The notes below the pieces were generated by a model that saw only the letters and a program-made list of their open reading frames with translations, was not told where the DNA came from and searched no databases. A program made the position numbers and the translations under genes. Positions 8,622 through 61,455 of a stretch of DNA of 64,000 bases are shown piece by piece (the first letter of the stretch is position 1; the number at the start of each line of letters is the position of its first letter). Source of the stretch: an uncultured Acidobacteriota bacterium (GTDB lineage Bacteria > Acidobacteriota > Thermoanaerobaculia > Thermoanaerobaculales > Sulfomarinibacteraceae); contig CAVQJV010000036.1 of NCBI GenBank assembly GCA_963712805.1, positions 111,219 to 175,218 on the forward strand, given 5' to 3'.

Positions 8622-10102
8622 TATCCGATGATCTCGAATTGTTCCTGGTGCTGCAGCGGGTTCTCCCGCAGGATCACCTGGACGCTGTGGACTTCCTCGA
8701 GCTCTCGCAGTAATTCGCGGAACGGCCCCTGGAGAAAATGCGAGACCTCGGGATGGACCACCAATGAGAGCTGGTCGCTGAGGCCGGCGGTCACAGCCTC
8801 GAGGAGGTTGCGTCGGATCTCGAGACAGATGGTGGCGAGGGCCTTGATTCGCCCGGAGCCGTGGCAGTAGGGGCATTCTCGGCTCAAGGTTCGATCGAGA
8901 CTCGGTCGGGTCCGTTTCCGGGTGAGCTGGATGAGGCCGAATTCCGACATGGGCAGGAGCTGGATCCGTGCCGAGTCGCCGTCGAGTTCGGTCTCGAGGG
9001 CCTGATAGAGCTCGAGACGATGAGCCGGGTCCTCCATGTCGATGAAATCGATGACAACGATGCCGCCGAGGTCTCGAAGTCGAAGCTGTCTGGCGACTTC
9101 CCGCACCGCTTCGAGGTTGAGGGTGAAAACGGTTTCTTCGAGGGATTTCGTGCCGACATACTTGCCGGTATTGATGTCGATCGCCACGAGGGCCTCGGTT
9201 TGATTGACGACCAGATAGCCGCCGGATTTGAGCCACACCTTCGGCCTCAGCGCTTTCTCGAGTTCCCGGTCGATACCGAAGGCGCTCATGAGATCGGTCG
9301 ACTTTCGGAAGAGTTTGAGCCGGGGAACGAGGCTCGGATCCGACTGTTCGAGGAATTCGAGAACTTCCTCGAACGCCTCTTCGTCGTCGACCCATGCCTC
9401 CTGCACCGCTGAGGTCAGGGTGTCCCGGACCGCGCGCAGGACCGGGCTCAGCTCATGGTGGACGAGATAGGGCGCGTTGGTTCTCTCCGTAGCGGTCTGG
9501 ATCTGTTTCCAGAGGTTGACGAGATAGCGTCGATCCGCCTCCAACTCGACGCGACCCTGTCCCTCCCCCGCGGTGCGGACGATCCATCCGCCGCCGCCGA
9601 ACCCGTCGGTCACCGCCTTGAGCCGCTCGCGCTCGTCGTCGTCGGTGATCCTTCGCGAGACGCCGAGTTGTTCCACGGTGGGCATGTAGACCAAAAAGCG
9701 TCCGGGCAGGGTGATATGAGTGGTCAGCCGGGCACCCTTGGTGCCGATGGGGTCCTTCACGACCTGGACGAGGATCTCCTGCCCTTGTCGGAGGAGATCA
9801 CCGATGTCGGTTTCCGCGAACTCGCTGGGTCCGGGCTCGTCATCGACCCTGAAGATGTCCGTGAATTCATCCATGATGCCACCGGCCTCACGGACGTAGA
9901 GAAAGCCGTCTCGGGGCAGCCCAAGATCGATAAACGCCGCCTGCATGCCCGGAAGGACGCGGGTGACCCGGCCCTTGTAGAGATTGCCGACCACCGATGA
10001 AGTCCGGTGTCGTTCCGCTCGGTAGCTCACCAGGCGCGACTTCTCGCGCAGGGCCACTCGGGTTTCGAATGGGTTGACCGAGAGAAAGAGGATGGAGTTC
10101 AT
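8621..10102 (-). CDS. rng: Ribonuclease G/E family (Rng/CafA)
   Basis: MNSILFLSVNPFETRVAL, S1 domain GNLYKGRVTRVLPGMQAAFIDLG, and the catalytic region VVIDFIDM. The ATG at 10102 overlaps the rodA stop (TGATG). The 811-aa ORF in the track is an upstream shadow extension. Confidence 0.9.
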   Translation of the reverse strand: MNSILFLSVNPFETRVALREKSRLVSYRAERHRTSSVVGNLYKGRVTRVLPGMQAAFIDLGLPRDGFLYVREAGGIMDEFTDIFRVDDEPGPSEFAETDIGDLLRQGQEILVQVVKDPIGTKGARLTTHITLPGRFLVYMPTVEQLGVSRRITDDDERERLKAVTDGFGGGGWIVRTAGEGQGRVELEADRRYLVNLWKQIQTATERTNAPYLVHHELSPVLRAVRDTLTSAVQEAWVDDEEAFEEVLEFLEQSDPSLVPRLKLFRKSTDLMSAFGIDRELEKALRPKVWLKSGGYLVVNQTEALVAIDINTGKYVGTKSLEETVFTLNLEAVREVARQLRLRDLGGIVVIDFIDMEDPAHRLELYQALETELDGDSARIQLLPMSEFGLIQLTRKRTRPSLDRTLSRECPYCHGSGRIKALATICLEIRRNLLEAVTAGLSDQLSLVVHPEVSHFLQGPFRELLRELEEVHSVQVILRENPLQHQEQFEIIG

Positions 10103-33053: not shown

Positions 33054-33259
33054 GATCGATGGCGGTATCGGTGGGGTCCGCCTCCGCTGACGAGTCCGGG
33101 TTGGATGAGTGGCGCGATGGTCGCTGCAGGCTACAATGGCGACTGGGTTGATCTCGGTGGTGAATCGAGACAACCAATGTCGATGAATACACCCAATCGA
33201 GCGGGTACCGCGGTTGAGTCCTTCGGCTCAACCGGCATCCGCGGTCGGCCGGAGGGCTG

Positions 33260-35389
33260 ATGGTTCAATTCGAAAACCAGTACCGACAGATCAAGGTCAA
33301 GATCGTGTACTACGGACCGGCGCTGGGCGGAAAGACGACGTGTCTCCAACATGTCCACCGGATCTCGGACCCCCAGCGTCGAAGTCGGCTTTACTCGCTC
33401 AACACGGCATCGGACCGCACCCTCTTTTTTGATCTTCTTTCGCTCAATCTGGGCCGCATCCGTGGATACCGGCTCGCGATCCAGCTCTACACCGTACCCG
33501 GTCAGGTCCAGTACAACGCCACGAGACGGACGGTTCTCGCGGGCGCCGATGGAGTGGTTTTTGTCGCCGATTCTCAACACGACCAGCACGAGGCCAATCT
33601 CCAGTCACTTGCGAATCTCAAGGAGAATCTCGAGGCCAACGGGATCGATCCCACGAGTCTGCCGCTGGTGCTGCAATACAACAAGAGGGACTTGGCGAAA
33701 CTGGTTCCCATCGACGAACTCGAGCGCACCCTCAATGACGGTGGGCTGCCGTCGTTTCCCACCGTCGCCATAACCGGAGACGGTGTGATGGACGCATTTG
33801 CAGCCATCACCGAGAACACCTTGGTGTCGCTGGCGGATCGTCTCGGTATCGACACCACCGGCCATGCGATCGAGCGACTCAAGCAACAGACACGGGCCGC
33901 CCTCGAACCCTTTCTCAACGTGTCGAGGCCTCCGGCGCCCGCCGATGACATCGAGATCACGGCGCCCGAACATCCGCCCGACGAGACCGGACCGTTGCCC
34001 CAGGAAACCCTGGTCAGAGAGGCGGTTCGCGCCAACCTGGCCATGACCGATCTGAGCTCACAGCTCGAGATCGCGAGCCGGCAACTCGAACGCAAAGCGC
34101 GCGTCACCAGGGCCATCGTCGACTTCGGACGCACCATCGCCCACCAGCGGGATCCGGCGGATGTGCTTCGATTGCTCCTCAAGACCGCGGTGTCTCGTCT
34201 CGAGGTGCAGGCTGCGGCCGTATTGATCGTGCCGGTGGCAGGACAGCTGAGAGAAGCGGTCGTCCACGGTGTCGAGCACGATCCCCTTCTGGCGTCGGTG
34301 ATCGAGTCGACCACTGCGGCGGGGGCGGTGGCTTCGACCGGCGAGCCGGTCCTCATCGCCAGCGATCTCGAGGGGGCGACCGCCGGTTCGGTCCAGATGG
34401 CGGTGGAGAAGGCGGGTTTTGCCTCCGCCATCGCGGTGCCGTTGACCGCCCAGGATCGGCTCCTGGGCCTGCTCTGTGTCTATGGCGGACACGATCGAAG
34501 TTCCCTGGATGAGGAGGAACTCGAGCTCGCGAGTATCCTCGGCGCCACCGCCGCCATGGGCTATTCCAACGCCCTCGCCTTCCGCCAACTCCAGGACTCG
34601 AACACCGGGCTCGAAAGCGCCGTCGATCAACGAACCGACGAGCTCAAGACCACCCTCGACGAGGTTCGCCGCCTCAACGACGAACTCAGCCGTCTCGATC
34701 GAATCAAGAACGAACTCATCTCTCGGATGTCCGAGCAGCTCAACCCACCCGTGTCATCGCTGGTCACGGCCGCGGGTGCGCTTGACAGTCTCCGCGGGGC
34801 GCCGCCTGAGAAAACGGCGCGGTTCCTCGACATCATCCGAAAACAGGCCGACACCCTCGCAGAGATCATGGACAGTGTCGGCCAGGCGTCCCTCCTCGCG
34901 ACCGATCACGGTGCGCCGAGTTCCGACCCTGCGTCGCTGCCGGAAGTGCTCCGGCGGGCGGTTGCGCCGCTCAGGGACCTCGCCAAACAGCTCGAGGTGG
35001 AAATCAAGGTACTGCGCCCCGGCAACCTCGAGACCATCACCTGTCACGCCGACGCCATCTCGACAGCCCTGCGGGCGGTCATCAAGAACGCGCTCGAACA
35101 CAATCGAGCCGGAGGCGAGGTTCGGATCGAGGTCCGCCGGGTGCTTCGAGGATCCGATCCCTGGATCGAGTTCAAGATCTCCGACACCGGTGATGGCATT
35201 CCCGAAACCGATCTCGATCGTGTCTTCGAGGCGTTTTGGCAGGGGGAACCAGGGGTGAGGGGCGAGTCTCGAGGAATCGGTCTCGGCCTCACGATCGCCA
35301 AGCAGGTCATGGGGCGCCACGGTGGTCGGATCTCCGTCACCCGACGATCACCCGAGGGCACTGAGGTGTCCATGACCCTGCCCCAGTAG
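33260..35389 (+). CDS. MglA-type Ras-like GTPase fused to GAF and a His-less HisKA/HATPase_c (pseudo histidine kinase)
   Basis: The N-terminus matches MglA (KIVYYGPALGGKTT, DRTLFFD, LYTVPGQ, QYNKRD). A GAF-like block ends ..AVPLTAQDRLLGLLCVY. The H-box reads RMSEQLNPPV instead of SHELRTPL. N box KNALEHN, G1 DTGDGIP and G2 GIGLGLTIAK are intact. Confidence 0.85.
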   Translation: MVQFENQYRQIKVKIVYYGPALGGKTTCLQHVHRISDPQRRSRLYSLNTASDRTLFFDLLSLNLGRIRGYRLAIQLYTVPGQVQYNATRRTVLAGADGVVFVADSQHDQHEANLQSLANLKENLEANGIDPTSLPLVLQYNKRDLAKLVPIDELERTLNDGGLPSFPTVAITGDGVMDAFAAITENTLVSLADRLGIDTTGHAIERLKQQTRAALEPFLNVSRPPAPADDIEITAPEHPPDETGPLPQETLVREAVRANLAMTDLSSQLEIASRQLERKARVTRAIVDFGRTIAHQRDPADVLRLLLKTAVSRLEVQAAAVLIVPVAGQLREAVVHGVEHDPLLASVIESTTAAGAVASTGEPVLIASDLEGATAGSVQMAVEKAGFASAIAVPLTAQDRLLGLLCVYGGHDRSSLDEEELELASILGATAAMGYSNALAFRQLQDSNTGLESAVDQRTDELKTTLDEVRRLNDELSRLDRIKNELISRMSEQLNPPVSSLVTAAGALDSLRGAPPEKTARFLDIIRKQADTLAEIMDSVGQASLLATDHGAPSSDPASLPEVLRRAVAPLRDLAKQLEVEIKVLRPGNLETITCHADAISTALRAVIKNALEHNRAGGEVRIEVRRVLRGSDPWIEFKISDTGDGIPETDLDRVFEAFWQGEPGVRGESRGIGLGLTIAKQVMGRHGGRISVTRRSPEGTEVSMTLPQ

Positions 35390-35397
35390 CTGGAACG

Positions 35398-36773
35398 TCA
35401 ATCCTCGGCGGTTGGCACCGGTGGCAGGCCCTCCACCGCCAACCGGGCCGCGGTTGCTGCGCGTTGGAGCTGCTGTGGCGTCGCGAACTCGAGCACGGAC
35501 TCGTCATTGGGCATGGTTTTCGGCCAGACCGCAGCCGAGGGAATGAGGCCGCGGCTCACATGGAGGCAGGCGCCGAGTTCGGTGGGGACTTTTCCTTCGA
35601 GGACGAAGCGAAAATCGACGGGGAAATCGGCGAGATGTCCCAGACCCGCACCGATCCGGCGTGGGAGTTCTCTCAGCAACGTCCGGCGGATTCCGTGGTG
35701 CGGCACCGGGAGCGCGGCGAGCACCCACAAGACGAGATCGGTGGGAACCGTGATGAGGTGGGCGGCGAGCTGAGCTGCTCCTGGATCGACACCGAGCACT
35801 TCGGCGGCCGCAGCGGCGCCCCTGGACCAGACGATGGCGACGCGCCGGGTCAGGCGATCGAGAGTCCCGGCGCGGCCGCGTTGCCACTTCTTGGCATCGG
35901 TGAGATCCGGCCAAAGCTCGAGCGACGCCGCGAATTCGTCGACATGTTCGATCCCCATGGGCGGCTGCAGGTCCGGAGAACGGATCGAGCACGCGAGCAC
36001 CATCAGGTTCCAGGTTGCCTGGGGAAGGCCGAAGAGCCGAACCCGACCGGTGGTATCGAGAGAGGCGGCCATGATCTCGCCGTGATCGGCGGGCTGAGGA
36101 ACGAGACCGGTGCTCGACGCCAGCCACTGGGCGAGGCTCGCCATGACGTTGCGGATGATGTCGTGGAGGGCGTTGATCTGATCGCCGTCAACAGGATCGT
36201 CGCTCGGGATTCCCCGCTGCACGAGGTGCCAAAAAAGCTCTCGACGGCCTCCTCGTCGAGCGGCAGCGCTGGTGACGGGGAGGTCTTTCTCACCTGTTTG
36301 GACTCATCCATGCGACGAGCGGAATCGAGGAGCAGTCTGCTCGGCGTGAGGCTGAGATAAAGACCGGAAGGATCTCGGATCGGGTGACCCGGGTCGAGCT
36401 CGAAGCGGAGTTCCGATGAGTCGAGGATCCGACCCATCATGAGTTCGGCGAGGACCGTCAGGCTGGCCCCGAGGGCGGTCTCGGTGATGGCCCTCTCGGC
36501 GAGAAGGACATCGGTGAAGAGCTCGTGGCGAAGCATGGCGGTCGAGAGTAACCGGCGCACCGACGCCGCCGGGAGCAATCCGTCCCGAGAGAGCCAGGTG
36601 GCGAGACGCTCTTCCGGAACGGTCGACGAAACATAGACAATCCGCCCGTGAAGAAAATCGAGTCTCCGCTCTCCGATTTCATCGGAAAGGGTCAGCCGCC
36701 CGGTTTGACCGCCGAGTTCGAGCCAGTGCAAGAGATCGCCCAAGTGAAGACGATCCAGATTTCCCCGGATCAT
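35398..36773 (-). pseudogene. DUF4388 (PATAN-type) domain protein, frame broken at an A6/T6 run (36231-36236)
   Basis: N-terminus MIRGNLDRLHLGDLLHWLELGGQTGRLTL is typical DUF4388. ORF 36003..36773 turns into S/R/P-rich text after ..EEAVESFF, while ORF 35398..36222 continues sensibly (WHLVQRGIPSDD...). One extra T would fuse them into about 458 aa. Confidence 0.7.
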
Positions 36774-54742: not shown

Positions 54743-55468
54743 CTACTGCAGGTTGAACCGTACAGTCAGAATGTACAGCACCTCCACCGGTTTCCCATTG
54801 AGGGTCGACGGCTTGAACTTCCACTTCCGAACGGCGTCGTCCGCCGCCTCGGTGAGACCGAGCGGCAATGGTCGAAGAACCTTCACATCCTGGACGTTGC
54901 CATCTTTGCCGATGGTGCACTCGAGGACCACGACACCCTGGATTCGGGCGCGGCGCGCAGCTTCGGGGTAGACCGGGTTCGGTCCGCTGAGCTTCTCGGG
55001 TTCGGTGATGTTGCCGCCGACGACGAAGCGTACCGGCCCCTCAGGCTCTGGTGGCGGTGGTGCGTCCGGGATTCCGAGAACCAAGTTGTCATCGGGGATG
55101 AAATCGATGTCCTCGTCGGGCTCGTCATCACGGATGGGCTCGGGCTCGTCGGGCGTCGGGTCCGGGATCGGAACCTTCTTGCTCTTGGGTTTCGGGATCT
55201 GCTGGAGCTCCTGCTTGGGAGGCTGCTTGAACTTGACTTGCTTGACCACGTAGATCTTGGTCTTTTTCTCGGTCGCGTCCTTGAGGCCGCCGGCGAAGGT
55301 CGGCCAGTGAAACGCGAAGATAAAGACGTGCAGGATGACGGCGACGGCGATCGCGACGCGGGTGAGCTTTTTGTCCTGCTGCTCTTCCTGCGCGATGATC
55401 TCGATGGTGGTCAGCTTCATCTTGGGGTCAGGCGCCTTGGATGCTGGTGTTTTGGGCGTCTCGGTCAT
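54743..55468 (-). CDS. tonB: TonB family protein
   Basis: N-terminal TM, Pro/Lys/Glu-rich spacer (PKPKSKKVPIPDPTPDEPEP) and TonB-C domain (PVYPEAARRARIQGVVVLECTI..DGNV). GAGGAGG RBS. Confidence 0.85.
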   Translation of the reverse strand: MTETPKTPASKAPDPKMKLTTIEIIAQEEQQDKKLTRVAIAVAVILHVFIFAFHWPTFAGGLKDATEKKTKIYVVKQVKFKQPPKQELQQIPKPKSKKVPIPDPTPDEPEPIRDDEPDEDIDFIPDDNLVLGIPDAPPPPEPEGPVRFVVGGNITEPEKLSGPNPVYPEAARRARIQGVVVLECTIGKDGNVQDVKVLRPLPLGLTEAADDAVRKWKFKPSTLNGKPVEVLYILTVRFNLQ

Positions 55469-55478
55469 GTCGTCCTCC

Positions 55479-55991
55479 TCACCCCATTCCCAGGAGGTTC
55501 CAGATGTTCTCGATTTCCCGCTGGGTCGGAATCGAGATGGTCTTGATTTCGGTCAGATCATTGCCGTGGACATCCTTGTACAGGGCTCTGCGTTCTTCGC
55601 TGCCTGCAATCGGTTCGGTCCACTCTTCGTTGGCTCGGCGGAGCAGATCGAAGATGCTGATCATGTCGCCGTAGGAAGCGTCCGGATCGGTCCGGAGAAT
55701 CACCGGCTTGTCGGGGTTCTGCAGCAGCTTCTCGAGCACGTACGGCAGCAACTGCTCCCTCGGCAGGGCCTTCTTGTCGACTTCGATGGACCCACCCGGT
55801 GTGACGTGAACTTCGATGGCGTCTTCCTGCTTGATCTCGGGGGTGTCGGTCTCCTCGGGGAGGGCGAAATCAAGGCCGCGGGTTGCCGAGAAGGCGGAGG
55901 TGATCATGAAGTAGATGATCAGCAGGAACGAGATATCGGCCATGGATCCGGTGAAGATCTCGGAGGCGATTTCTTTCTTTTTGATATTCAT
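55479..55991 (-). CDS. exbD: Biopolymer transport protein ExbD/TolR
   Basis: MADISFLLIIYFMITS TM containing the conserved Asp, then an ExbD periplasmic domain. Confidence 0.85.
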   Translation of the reverse strand: MNIKKKEIASEIFTGSMADISFLLIIYFMITSAFSATRGLDFALPEETDTPEIKQEDAIEVHVTPGGSIEVDKKALPREQLLPYVLEKLLQNPDKPVILRTDPDASYGDMISIFDLLRRANEEWTEPIAGSEERRALYKDVHGNDLTEIKTISIPTQREIENIWNLLGMG

Positions 55992-56005
55992 CGTCGTCCC
56001 CCGGC

Positions 56006-56449
56006 CTACAGTTCCGCTGCCGTCAGCTGCTCGGAAAGCAGGAAGATGTACTTCACCTTCGATTGCTTGAGCGCATCGAGCACTTCGTCCACCACCGCGT
56101 AAGGGGCGTCCTTATCGGCCTTGAGGATGAACTCCGCGTTGGGGTTCTTCGCCACCTCCGTTGATGCGAAGGTGATCACCTCTTCGATGGTGGCCACCGG
56201 GAGCGCCATTTCCTCGCCGGTGGAAACCCGGATCGTCGATCCCATGTTGGGTGGGGAGATGGAGATCACCGCCGCCTTTTCGGGGATCTTCTTGCGGATC
56301 CAGGTCTCGGGCAGGTTCATCTGCGTTTTGTCCACCTCGACCTTGTAGGTCAGGACAAAGAAAACGATCAAGAGGAAGACGATATCCGCCATGGAAGCGG
56401 TAAAGATCGCCGCCCCGGTTCCTCGGTCTCTGCCGCGAATCAGTGCCAT
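56006..56449 (-). CDS. exbD: Biopolymer transport protein ExbD/TolR (second copy)
   Basis: SMADIVFLLIVFFVLT TM with Asp. ExbD-like C-terminus (ILKADKDAPYAVVDEVLDAL). Confidence 0.85.
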   Translation of the reverse strand: MALIRGRDRGTGAAIFTASMADIVFLLIVFFVLTYKVEVDKTQMNLPETWIRKKIPEKAAVISISPPNMGSTIRVSTGEEMALPVATIEEVITFASTEVAKNPNAEFILKADKDAPYAVVDEVLDALKQSKVKYIFLLSEQLTAAEL

Positions 56450-56477
56450 CGCGGTCTCCCTTCCTCAGGTCGTGTTC

Positions 56478-57107
56478 TCACTCAGCGCTCCCGTCCATCT
56501 CGGTGAAGGTTTCGAGGAGCATGTTGGTTGCGGTTTCGATGTCGCGAACAAAGCGTGTGATCTTCGTCGTGTACCAGTTGTAGGCGAGCTGGGCCGGAAT
56601 CGCGATGATGAGACCGGCGGCGGTGGTGATGAGCGCCTCGGAGATCCCGACGGCAACCGCTGCCGGATTGGTCAGACCCTGCTCCGCGAGAGTGGCAAAC
56701 GATTTGATCATGCCGGCGACGGTTCCGAGGAAGCCGAGCATGGGAGCAACGTTGGCCGTGGTCGCAAGAACGCCCATTCGTTTTTCCAAACGATCGAGCT
56801 CATAAAGAGCGGCGTTCTCGATGGTCTTCTCGATGTCTTCACGACTGTGGCCGTAACGCAGCAGACCGGCCTTCATCACCGAAGCAACGGGTCCGCGATT
56901 ACTCTCACAGGCTTTGATGGCTTCTTTGACATTGCGGTTGACCAACAGCGCCTTACGGATCTTGGTCAGAAACTCATTGACGTTGATCCTCGCCTTGGTC
57001 AGCACGATGAATCGCTCGATGATGACGGTCAGTGCCAACAGCGAAAAGAAGAGCAACGGCCACATGAAGATCCCACCCTGGCGGAATAGATCTGCTACTT
57101 GTCCCAC
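56478..57107 (-). CDS. exbB: MotA/TolQ/ExbB proton channel protein
   Basis: GGIFMWPLLFFSLLALTVIIER, LATTANVAPMLGFLGTVAGMI, ALITTAAGLIIAIPA. Confidence 0.9.
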   Translation of the reverse strand: MGQVADLFRQGGIFMWPLLFFSLLALTVIIERFIVLTKARINVNEFLTKIRKALLVNRNVKEAIKACESNRGPVASVMKAGLLRYGHSREDIEKTIENAALYELDRLEKRMGVLATTANVAPMLGFLGTVAGMIKSFATLAEQGLTNPAAVAVGISEALITTAAGLIIAIPAQLAYNWYTTKITRFVRDIETATNMLLETFTEMDGSAE

Positions 57108-58751: not shown

Positions 58752-61455
58752 ATGAGCGCAAACATTCTACTCATCGAGTACGAGCAGAGTACCGTCGATG
58801 GTATCAGGCAATGCCACTGCCGGAGGCGGTCACCGCCTCGAGGTGGCCGGTAGTCTGGACGCCGCGGTTGAGGCTTGTGCCCATTTCGAACCCAAGATCG
58901 TCATCATCACCGCACAGCTGCCGCAGATTCCCGTCGGGGATGCCATCACCCAACTTCGGGGCCGGGCCGGTCTGCGGGTCACCCCGTTCTTGATTCTGAT
59001 GCCGGGATACCAGGGTGATGACTCCAAGGCCGATGCCGAAGAGGTCGGCGCTCAGGACATTGTCTCGCTCCCATTCGCGGCCGAAGAGATCCGAAACAAG
59101 ATCGAGGCGTTGATTCGGGCGTCGGCTGCGATTCTCACGACCCAGGCGGTGCCGCAGGAGACGCTGGACGCCTTACGCCGGGGTCAAGCCGAGGACGACG
59201 GCCAGTCGTTCAGTTCCGACGACCTCTTCGCCGACATTCTCTCCGATGTCGAGAGAGATGGACCGGTCGACAAAAAGACGACCGCCGCGACCTCACAGCG
59301 AGTCTTCGACTCCAAGGTCGACAGTGCTTTGGCCGACATGCTCGGCGACGCCGGTGAAGTCCGCGAGCATCGGCGGTCGAAGCCGAGTGCCGATGTCGAC
59401 GCCATGCTTTCCAAGACCCTGGCCGGGCTCGAGCTGTCGCCGTCGACGACGACCAAGAAGAAGACTCCGAACGAGCCGATCAAGGAGACCGCCGCTGCCG
59501 GCGAACCGGGCCCGCCTCCCGGGCCCGCCCCCGAGGCCGAGCCGCCGAAGGCCGAACCCATCGCCGAATCCGCGGCGGAGAAGAAGACGCCGGTCGACCG
59601 GACCTCGACGGTTTCCCCGGGAACGACCTTTGGACAGTACGTCCTCGAGGAGCGCATCGCGACCGGGGGGATGGCCCAGGTCTACAAGGCCCGCATGCTC
59701 GGTCTCGAGGGGTTCCAGAAGACCGTCGCCATCAAGAGAATCCTGCCCCACCTCACAAGCAACGAAGAGTTCGTCAGCATGTTCGTCGATGAGGCCAAAC
59801 TGGCGGCCCAACTCAACCATCCGAACATCATTCATATCTACGATCTCGGCAAGATCGACAGTTCCTATTTCATTGCCATGGAGTACATCGAGGGGCGCGA
59901 TCTTCGGTCAATCCTCGACCAGTGCCGTCAGCGCGATGTCCGGGTGCCGATCCCCATCGCTTTGTATATCGCCAATCTGCTTGCGAGCGGACTCGACTAC
60001 GCGCACAAGAAGCGCGATTTCGACAATCGCGACCTCGGATTGGTCCACCGGGACGTCTCGCCGCAGAATGTGCTCATCTCCTCCGACGGAGAGATCAAGC
60101 TCTGCGACTTCGGGATCGCCAAGGCGGCCTCCAAGGCGTCGCACACCCGCGCCGGCGCGCTCAAGGGCAAGCTGCAGTACATGTCTCCCGAGCAGGCCTG
60201 GGGAAAGGACATCGATCACCGATCGGATGTCTTCTCCCTCGGAGTCGTGCTCTACGAGATGTTGACGGCGCACAAGGTGTTTACCGGCGATTCCGAGCTG
60301 TCGATCCTCGAGCAGGTCCGCAACCCGGTTGTCGCGGTTCCCTCGAGCGTGGTGCCGGCGATTCCCGCCGAGGTCGACCGCATCGTCTCAAAGGCGCTCT
60401 CACCGGAGCGAACCGATCGCTATCAATCCGCGCTGGATCTTCAGCGCGAGTTCGAGGTCCTTCTCAAGGGCCAGGGATGGGAGCCGGATACCGCGGCCCT
60501 GGTCGGCTTCATTGGCGAACTCGAATCGGGTGCGGAAATCACGGATTATCCCGCCGCCCTCCCGGAGGCTGCAACTTCGGTCACACCGCCCGTCGAGCCG
60601 CCGCCGGGCCCGCCGGTCAAACCGCCGGCGAAAGAACCGGAGCCGGCTCGGAAGAAGGCCGTCAAACCGGTGGTTCTGGCTGAAACCGTGGCGGAGATCG
60701 AGGCCGCCGACGCGCCGCCGACGAGGGGCGCCGGCAAGTGGCTGTGGATCGCGATCGCGACGGTCGTGCTTGCGCTCATCGCGGGATGGTGGTTTTTCAT
60801 GGGTCCGGGCTCCGGAGGGGGTGACTCCACCGCGGTGCCGACGCCTGTTCCGGCCGCCGTGACCGTGGAACAGACCCCCACCGTCACCGATGGGCTGATG
60901 GACGAGGCGGAACTCCTGGAACGCGCGCGTGAGGTGGCTTCGGCCGAGATGGCCAAGCAGGAGCAGGAACTCAGGGATCGGCTCGAGAAGGAGTTCCCGA
61001 CACCGACGCCGCTGCCGCCGACCGAGACCCCGACCGAGACCCCGACCGAGACCCCGACCCCGAGTCCGACGGCGACCAAGAGACCACCGACACCGACTCG
61101 GGTGCCGCCGACGGCGACGCCGATCCCCAACACGCCGACTCCGGTTGTTCTCGAGGGGGACATCGTCGACGCGGGACCCGGCGTCACCGCCCCGGTCCTG
61201 CTCAACCGGGTGAATCCGGTCTATCCCCCCATCGCTCAGCGCGCGGGGATCAGCGGCGAGGTGACGGCACAGCTTCTCGTCGGAATCGACGGTCGGGTCG
61301 AAGAAGTCCGAGATATCGTCGCGTCCAAGACGGGTGTCGGGTTCGAACACGCGACTGAAGATGCGGTGCGCCAGTGGCGATATCGTCCCGCGACCAAGAA
61401 CGGCGTCAAGGTCCGGGTGTGGGTTCGAATCACGGTAAATCTCACGTTGAACTGA
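58752..61455 (+). CDS. Pseudo-receiver / Ser-Thr protein kinase / TM / Pro-Thr-rich linker / TonB C-terminal domain fusion (N-terminal frame break near 58805-58830)
   Basis: The intact ORF is 58798..61455. A short ORF from the ATG at 58752 encodes MSANILLIEYEQSTVDGIRQ (receiver beta1) in the -1 frame. Kinase motifs are ATGGMAQVY, VAIKRI, HRDVSPQN and DFGIAKA. TM is WLWIAIATVVLALIAGWWFFMG, followed by PTETPTETPTETPT. The TonB-C domain reads NPVYPPIAQRAGISGEVTAQLLVGIDGRV. Confidence 0.8.

Follow-up and report, generated by a model that had tools for sequence, protein, structure and literature searches.

We analyzed a 64-kb window (63% G+C), the whole stretch of contig CAVQJV010000036.1 considered here, from an uncultured member of the Sulfomarinibacteraceae in the phylum Acidobacteriota. 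Open reading frame (ORF) calls and translation revealed a complete gene whose 709-amino-acid (aa) product joins an MglA-type small GTPase (G) domain, a GAF domain, and the DHp and CA modules of a histidine kinase (Table 1). The gene starts with an ATG preceded, 5 nt upstream, by a Shine-Dalgarno sequence (GGAGGG) and ends at a stop codon at 35387-35389; one uninterrupted ORF is likewise found in >115 homologues. An earlier note, made from the letters of this DNA, had described an MglA-GAF-DHp/CA fusion protein without a phospho-acceptor histidine, and our sequence comparisons confirmed that observation. All of the motifs it quoted were found in the translation: IVYYGPALGGKTT at aa 15-27, DRTLFFD at aa 52-58, LYTVPGQ at aa 76-82, and QYNKRD at aa 139-144 in the G domain, and KNALEHN at aa 609-615, DTGDGIP at aa 642-648, and GIGLGLTIAK at aa 672-681 in the kinase part.

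Pfam matches of the G domain to Ras and Arf were both sub-threshold. Pfam contains no sensitive MglA model; in a direct search of PDB sequences, aa 7-191 matched Myxococcus xanthus MglA (5ymx; phmmer, E=2.9e-54) and Thermus thermophilus MglA (3t12; E=1.8e-43). The predicted structure of the domain aligned with MglA structures at Foldseek template modeling (TM) scores of 0.80-0.84, the highest being to 6h17 (0.84). Motifs G1 through G5 read GPALGGKT (P-loop, G19-T26), T54, T78-V-P-G-Q82, N141-K-R-D144, and A170-x-x-G, and a putative Arg finger, R53, adjoins the G2 Thr (D52-R53-T54). Group 1 MglA proteins are marked by a G3 motif of TVPGQ, with Thr where Ras has Asp, and by an Arg of their own beside the G2 Thr (PMC4316618); both hallmarks are present in the fusion protein. 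Residues G19, K25, T26, D52, R53, T54, T78-Q82, and N141-D144 are invariant in 117/117 homologues, and so is the A170-x-x-G motif. These alignments show that the N-terminal domain is a predicted Group 1 MglA GTPase with every catalytic residue intact, in agreement with the earlier assignment to the MglA family, and not a generic P-loop protein. At 709 aa and with three further domains, the protein falls outside the 150-240 aa range of single-domain small GTPases.

The kinase part presents a different picture at the site of phosphorylation. When the protein was aligned with HK853 by BLASTP, S-E492-Q-L-N-P-P lay opposite S-H260-E-L-R-T-P, so that Glu492 occupies the acceptor position within an H-box reading SEQLNPPV (aa 491-498, nt 34730-34753; codons checked). 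The acidic residue at +1 (now Q493) and the Thr at +4 (now P496) have also been lost; in HisKA kinases these two residues, which form the E/DxxT/N motif, serve catalysis and phosphatase activity. The Pfam HisKA match (aa 483-540) scored 21.7 bits, under the 26.9 cut-off, as expected because the H-box is degenerate, and the helical hairpin fold of the DHp is still predicted despite this score. Neither DHp helix contains a His, and the sole one nearby, H550 of the DHp-CA loop, varies among homologues. Profile and pairwise alignments thus place no His at the site, as the earlier note had stated, and the homologue alignment contained no conserved alternative His or other acceptor in the DHp. We also considered H33 and H31 of the G domain as acceptors and rejected them, since both are usual, by consensus, in acidobacterial MglA proteins that have no kinase part. 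The CA domain gave a strong HATPase_c match (aa 597-708, 8.6e-23). Not only the N, G1, and G2 boxes named in the earlier note but also the F box are intact, and N610, D642, G644, G646, G672, G674, and G676 are invariant in 117/117 homologues, whatever the state of the H-box. A model of the C-terminal DHp/CA part aligned equally well with HK853 and with the pseudokinase DivL (4q20), with a Foldseek TM score of 0.75 to each. Alignments and model together show a core with the predicted fold of a histidine kinase and all of its ATP-binding residues, from which the acceptor His has been lost.

An AlphaFold2 monomer model built from 68 family members had a mean predicted local distance difference test score (pLDDT) of 75.7 and a predicted TM score (pTM) of 0.41. 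In this model, a conserved helix (aa 202-219) directly follows the G domain, a Pro-rich stretch (aa 220-247) is predicted to be disordered, and a long helix (aa 248-295) runs into the GAF domain. On this last helix, L251, E254, A255, V256, R257, N259, M262, and T263 are invariant in the 68 aligned homologues, and conservation across aa 202-296 (33863-34147) equals that of the catalytic motifs; the region may serve in dimerization or in docking of the G domain. The GAF domain that the earlier note had recognized was placed above threshold by Pfam as both GAF_2 (aa 297-433; 6.4e-14, 52.8 bits vs. a cut-off of 28.6) and GAF (4.2e-13, 50.4 bits), and its fold was modeled with confidence over aa 299-417 (pLDDT ~85-94). 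Beyond it, aa 418-510 form one continuous helix, comprising the signaling helix and DHp helix 1, aa 516-547 form DHp helix 2, and the CA domain (aa 556-709) completes the model. Foldseek found no PDB entry matching the whole architecture. Because the linker is disordered and Pro-rich and the model shows no confident packing between domains, the G domain is, as modeled, flexibly tethered and not rigidly fused, and the description of the GTPase as "hard-wired" to the kinase module therefore overstates its rigidity.

A search of 5.8 billion proteins returned at least 117 full-length homologues with the same architecture at 52-91% identity, in Thermoanaerobaculia-like Acidobacteriota. They bear generic database names ("ATP-binding protein", "signal transduction histidine kinase/SRP receptor beta", and in a few cases "MglA"), and those from named sources belong to metagenome-assembled genomes of Thermoanaerobaculales or Holophagae. 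Searches of the literature on MglA-kinase fusions found no paper describing the architecture, and we thus encountered no characterized or specifically annotated family to which the protein could be assigned. In a wider search of 50%-identity cluster representatives, MglA-GAF-kinase fusions were detected down to ~27% identity, together with MglA-kinase proteins lacking GAF and MglA-GAF proteins lacking the kinase; distant MglA-(GAF/PAS)-kinase fusions extend to Holophagae, Myxococcia, and Modulibacteria. Among GTDB species genomes, those containing the family are mainly Acidobacteriota (Thermoanaerobaculia, Ca. Sulfomarinibacteraceae, Ca. Polarisedimenticolaceae, and Holophagae), with outliers in Myxococcia, "Deltaproteobacteria", and Ca. 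Vecturithrix/Moduliflexus. Two cultured bacteria, Geothrix paludis SG195 (L074, 5977-8403) and Holophaga foetida DSM 6591 (L057, 5884-8361), encode MglA-PAS-HATPase_c-REC hybrids in which PAS replaces GAF. The representatives also included dozens of MglA-domain proteins of 300-800 aa with long Pro-rich C-terminal extensions and no Pfam domain in them (P0179-P0268). Pfam scans of 68 such "MglA plus extension" proteins revealed low-complexity tails only, and MglA with an appended tail appears to be common among the retrieved representatives.

The acceptor column of the 117 close homologues is occupied by Leu (48), Ala (22), His (14), Ser (9), Asp (7), Glu, Thr, and Gly (5 each), and Val and Asn (1 each). 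Among more distant representatives with a recognizable DHp, 31/45 have the canonical S-H-E-x-x-T-P box. Fitch parsimony on a neighbor-joining tree of 145 full-length sequences placed His at the root and required at least five changes between His and non-His (the tree is approximate, not maximum-likelihood). Because most distant members keep the canonical SHExxTP box, these comparisons show His to be the probable ancestral state of the wider fusion family and the His-less state to be derived. One His-less clade has a strictly conserved box with Leu, S-L-D/E-L-R-T-P-V-T-S-L, in 48/48 members, and a second has kept the box with Ser at the acceptor position (SSELRTPVTSL). In the clade to which the window's gene belongs, the acceptor residue is variable (A/E/T/D/G/S/V/N) and the acidic +1 residue and the +4 Thr have been lost as well; the variability of residue 492 implies that selection is not favoring a replacement acceptor at this site.

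Mean pairwise identity is 0.77 in the G domain and 0.55-0.57 in the GAF, DHp, and CA domains. Within the DHp it is 0.85 among His-bearing proteins vs. 0.55 among His-less ones, compared with 0.78-0.83 for the G domain, which is consistent with a relaxation of constraint on the DHp after loss of the His, although the His-bearing group is smaller and its members are somewhat more closely related. Comparison of the window's gene with that of its 91% relative, L001 (synonymous divergence dS 0.31), gave ratios of nonsynonymous to synonymous substitution (dN/dS) of 0.09 for the G domain, 0.18 for GAF, 0.23 for the DHp, and 0.21 for CA (0.16 overall). The DHp and CA values indicate that the apparently dead kinase core is still under purifying selection, and together the ratios show that the gene has been maintained over its whole length. 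The protein thus combines a retained histidine kinase fold, an absent acceptor His, and purifying selection, which are the sequence features of a pseudo-histidine kinase.

Genes encoding REC domains flank 8 of the 12 His-bearing fusion loci vs. none of the 17 His-less loci (Fisher p=1.2e-4, ignoring phylogeny). In three His-bearing loci, L005 (6886-10722), L015, and L016, the end of a gene for a 371-aa REC-HisKA-HATPase_c protein overlaps the start of the fusion gene, which is followed by a gene for a 124-aa single-domain REC protein. This three-gene unit looks like a multi-kinase phosphorelay that was lost in the window's lineage. In the Polarisedimenticolaceae loci L024-L026, a REC gene lies directly upstream of the fusion gene. 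No REC gene occurs within 20 kb of the window's fusion gene, though an orphan partner may be encoded elsewhere, and these comparisons show that His-less lineages are without the adjacent REC genes that most of their His-bearing relatives have.

The earlier note had also recognized no mglB in the window, and two approaches agreed with it. Pfam scans found no Roadblock/LC7 domain among the called genes of the window; the remaining genes, between 24.5 and 45 kb, were assigned from the gene order that they share with L001. A jackhmmer search starting from M. xanthus MglB (a seed identical to PDB 6h5b_B) covered all six-frame ORFs of at least 60 aa in the window and in 89 loci. It detected no MglB in the 64 kb or in the 6-10 kb around any fusion locus; its sole matches lay beside the stand-alone mglA genes of L065 and L086, which served as positive controls.

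Upstream of the fusion gene, the leader can fold into two hairpins (Table 1). The first, a 10-bp stem with a CUUC loop, had been noticed previously; it does exist, although it lies about 4 nt away from the reported position (33217-33236), and its z-score is only -2.3. We considered whether it might be a terminator and rejected this, since there is no T-tract and a terminator scan was empty. The loop and 3' arm of the second hairpin cover the Shine-Dalgarno sequence and start codon, which hints at translational control if the predicted fold forms. L001 has hairpins at both places, the first with a different stem sequence, and neither is present in the 70% and 64% relatives L003 and L004; we regard the leader hairpin as a minor, lineage-specific feature. 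A -10-like hexamer aligned among five upstream regions suggests that the fusion gene may have its own promoter and a leader of ~115 nt, but no promoter was called at this site by a sigma-70 consensus scan. Rfam searches of the leader and of the entire window gave no match, and tRNA genes were likewise not detected.

The fusion gene is located within a housekeeping block that is syntenic across its clade, with purD, purE, PSP1, hfq, udk, and genes for a TPR protein, proline dehydrogenase, and a comF-like protein upstream and rimK, ferritin, tyrS, fur, and cydA downstream. Immediately upstream lie three genes whose products have 126 aa, 183 aa (membrane-anchored), and 306 aa (with a signal peptide); we considered these as partners or hidden MglB proteins and set them aside, as none had a Pfam or MglB match and all belong to the conserved housekeeping synteny. 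The convergent downstream neighbor encodes a PATAN (PatA_N/DUF4388) protein, which is 458 aa long in relatives (the L001 orthologue matches PF14332 at 1.9e-16) and occupies this place in seven of the eight syntenic-clade loci read with gene calls. In the window, a 1-nt deletion in a T6 run (36231-36236), as judged against L001, breaks the gene into two frames; it may have become a genuine pseudogene, or the homopolymer may have been misread in sequencing. Elsewhere, PATAN genes have been reported in the vicinity of Group 1 and Group 5 mglA genes and of mglB (PMC4316618), and a preprint describes PATAN response regulators as acting on the cyanobacterial type IV pilus motor (bioRxiv 10.1101/2021.06.11.447907). 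The PATAN protein is a weak candidate for a partner of the fusion protein; we downgraded adjacency as a sign of functional linkage, since it holds inside the syntenic clade only.

Two further regions of the window drew attention. A gene at 58798-61452 (+) encodes an 885-aa protein in which, unusually, a Ser/Thr protein kinase domain is combined with a weakly REC-like region (E=7e-4) at the N terminus and TonB_C at the C terminus, and it adjoins an exbB-exbD-exbD-tonB cluster (54746-57107, - strand). Two adjacent ORFs of ~180 aa (8861-9409 and 9455-9997, +) have coding-like GC content at third codon positions (GC3) and no Pfam match, and they sit between an mqnC-like radical SAM gene and a rodA-pbp2-mreC-mreB cluster.

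Table 1. Positions, in window coordinates, of the fusion gene, its domains, and flanking features
Feature	Position	Strand	Basis
TACAAT, -10-like hexamer	33132..33137	+	Upstream alignment: (G)TACAAT/TAGAAT in window, L001, L003, L004, L006
Leader hairpin, 10-bp stem, CUUC loop	33211..33234	+	Minimum free energy fold, z=-2.3
Second small hairpin, over Shine-Dalgarno and start codon	33244..33261	+	Fold; same in L001
MglA-GAF-DHp-CA fusion gene, complete	33260..35389	+	Single uninterrupted 709-aa ORF
Predicted Group 1 MglA-type G domain, aa 1-195	33260..33844	+	MglA similarity, Foldseek, invariant catalytic residues
Tether, aa 196-296	33845..34147	+	AlphaFold2 secondary structure, pLDDT, invariant columns
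GAF domain, aa 297-433	34148..34558	+	Pfam GAF_2/GAF, pLDDT
Signaling helix and degenerate DHp, aa 434-547	34559..34900	+	Sub-threshold HisKA, AlphaFold2 model, HK853 alignment
Glu492 codon, phospho-acceptor His position	34733..34735	+	Alignments, codon check
CA (HATPase_c) domain, aa 556-709	34925..35386	+	Pfam, invariant box residues, dN/dS
PATAN (PatA_N/DUF4388) gene, convergent neighbor	35398..36773	-	L001 alignment, tblastn in two frames

How might such a protein work? We judge the chances to be about even that it is a pseudo-histidine kinase operating outside His-Asp phosphotransfer, in which the GAF/DHp/CA part is a conformational module coupled to the GTPase and the output is protein-protein interaction, possibly in polarity or pilus function. 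Such a cytoplasmic, presumably dimeric protein would be the descendant of a genuine MglA-GAF-histidine kinase and would neither autophosphorylate nor feed a response regulator. Its GAF-signaling helix-DHp-CA unit would act as a conformational scaffold that depends on ligand and ATP and either controls the GTP/GDP state of the tethered MglA domain or is controlled by it, and the output would be the binding of partner proteins by the MglA domain or by the pseudokinase surface. By analogy with MglA and PATAN biology, the most plausible partners would be proteins of cell polarity or of type IV pilus/motility, for example the neighboring PATAN protein, with GTPase-activating protein (GAP) and guanine nucleotide exchange factor (GEF) activities supplied by genes elsewhere in the genome or by the protein's own C-terminal part. 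Several observations weigh against this interpretation. Four of the 12 His-bearing loci likewise have no adjacent REC gene, and the correlation between REC and His is not phylogenetically corrected. The PATAN gene is absent in L009 and in distant fusion loci and is frameshifted in the window, and its link carries little weight because the whole neighborhood, from purD to tyrS, fur, and cydA, is syntenic. Contact in cis between the G domain and the kinase is unsupported by the structural model, with its low pTM. Finally, the invariant ATP-binding residues exceed what scaffolding of the DivL type would need and fit continued catalysis equally well.

That last point leads to an alternative that we find unlikely but would not dismiss lightly, namely that the CA domain is still a working phosphotransferase with a non-canonical acceptor, either the His of a kinase with which it forms a heterodimer or a Ser, Thr, or Tyr in a partner protein or in the G domain itself. 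Ser is phosphorylated in this way by anti-sigma-factor kinases, which have the same ATPase fold. The invariance of the N, G1, F, and G2 residues irrespective of the H-box and the purifying selection on CA would both fit such an activity, as would the subclade with Ser at the acceptor position, and the His-bearing relatives beside a second REC-HisKA-HATPase kinase indicate that kinase-kinase partnerships exist in the family. Yet the DHp has no conserved alternative acceptor, its acceptor column holds Leu in the largest clade and a changing residue in the window's clade, the His-less fusion genes have no second kinase gene nearby, and the two G-domain histidines are not peculiar to proteins with a kinase part. 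We think it improbable, in turn, that the kinase part itself regulates the GTPase in cis, with GAF-DHp-CA as a built-in GAP, GEF, or effector replacing MglB/RomRX in a one-component GTPase sensor, a proposal that overlaps with the pseudo-histidine kinase interpretation. The empty MglB search, whose controls were found, speaks for it, as do the conserved helix and invariant residues between the G domain and GAF and the existence of MglA-GAF proteins without a kinase. On the other side, mglB could be located elsewhere in the genome, the 30-residue linker is flexible and the model predicts no interface, and Group 1 MglA proteins, which have their own Arg finger and Gln, need a Roadblock dimer to position them in known cases (PMC4316618). 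The more specific form of this idea, that GAF ligand and ATP on the dead core govern in cis either how the tethered MglA cycles between GTP and GDP or its effector exposure, appears to us similarly improbable; if it were true, the repeated loss of His would mark a switch from phosphorelay to GTPase output in Acidobacteria. There is, lastly, hardly any chance that the gene is a decaying remnant or that the loss of His or the fusion is an artefact of sequencing or assembly. The homopolymer frameshift in the PATAN neighbor does suggest that the assembly may hold indel errors, and changes have accumulated faster in the DHp and CA than in the G domain. However, the same full-length ORF is present in >115 clusters from independent samples, overall dN/dS is low and the nucleotide-binding residues are invariant, and every member of the window's clade carries a non-His residue, so that conservation effectively refutes this explanation.

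MglA is a model for Ras-like polarity control in bacteria, and it has been studied and catalogued almost solely as a stand-alone protein; here it is the N-terminal module of a sensor kinase family. Proteins of up to 240 aa were the focus of the main survey of Ras-like GTPases in prokaryotes (PMC4316618). Judged by the homologues retrieved, the family is large, mainly acidobacterial, and unnamed. The earlier note had suggested an uncharacterized signaling logic. This does not look like a separate invention, since the architecture is common in Acidobacteriota metagenomes and most of its distant members are ordinary His-bearing kinases with REC partners; by sequence, the "new logic" is a derived, degenerate state of a two-component kinase. 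The family forms a natural series from His-bearing proteins with REC, through His-less proteins with a conserved H-box (the Leu clade), to His-less proteins with a degenerate H-box such as that encoded in the window, and this series is suited to asking how a two-component kinase becomes a pseudokinase and what a GTPase adds to kinase signaling. The relatives in cultured G. paludis and H. foetida offer an experimental entry point. No new biochemical principle is established as yet, and the interest lies in the family and its evolutionary series.

Several known systems share part of this arrangement. The pseudo-histidine kinases DivL of Caulobacter, PsmA of Streptomyces, and RetS likewise keep a HisKA-type DHp/CA fold without the acceptor His. 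In these proteins (DivL, PMC4211667 and PMC5361649; PsmA, PMC12963549), the module has been repurposed for protein-protein signaling, often in cell polarity. DivL differs from the fusion protein in having Tyr at the acceptor site, PAS domains, and a membrane anchor, and none of the three has a GTPase domain. Eukaryotic and prokaryotic ROCO proteins (Roc GTPase-COR-kinase, e.g., LRRK2) follow a similar logic, with a kinase and a Ras-like GTPase on the same polypeptide, but their kinase fold is unrelated and a Roc-COR tandem stands in place of MglA, so that the resemblance is one of analogy and implies no homology. The actinobacterial conservon, a four-gene unit, couples the function of a histidine kinase to that of an MglA-family GTPase without a response regulator, and the GTPase has been proposed to be the output (PMC4316618). 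There, the CvnA kinase, the MglB-like CvnB, CvnC, and the MglA-like CvnD are separate proteins and an MglB homologue is always present; CvnD belongs to Group 2 (GTPGQ, no Arg finger), and CvnA is a membrane kinase that has its His. The window's gene, a single fused gene with the Group 1 features TVPGQ and an Arg finger and with no Roadblock gene, is thus not a conservon. M. xanthus and T. thermophilus MglA share ~50% identity with aa 7-191 of the fusion protein and have the P-loop, Arg finger, TVPGQ, and NKxD in common with it, although they are stand-alone proteins of ~195 aa that are usually encoded with the GAP MglB, whereas the fused domain is the N terminus of a 709-aa protein with no mglB nearby. 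The His-bearing MglA-GAF-HisKA-HATPase_c kinases of other Acidobacteriota (e.g., P0054 in L005, P0107, and those of L024-L026), which are likewise uncharacterized, agree with the fusion protein in domain order, are 53-58% identical to it, and share its chromosomal neighborhood in Thermoanaerobaculia-like genomes, but they keep S-H-E-L-K/R-T-P, pass the Pfam HisKA threshold, and often adjoin REC genes.

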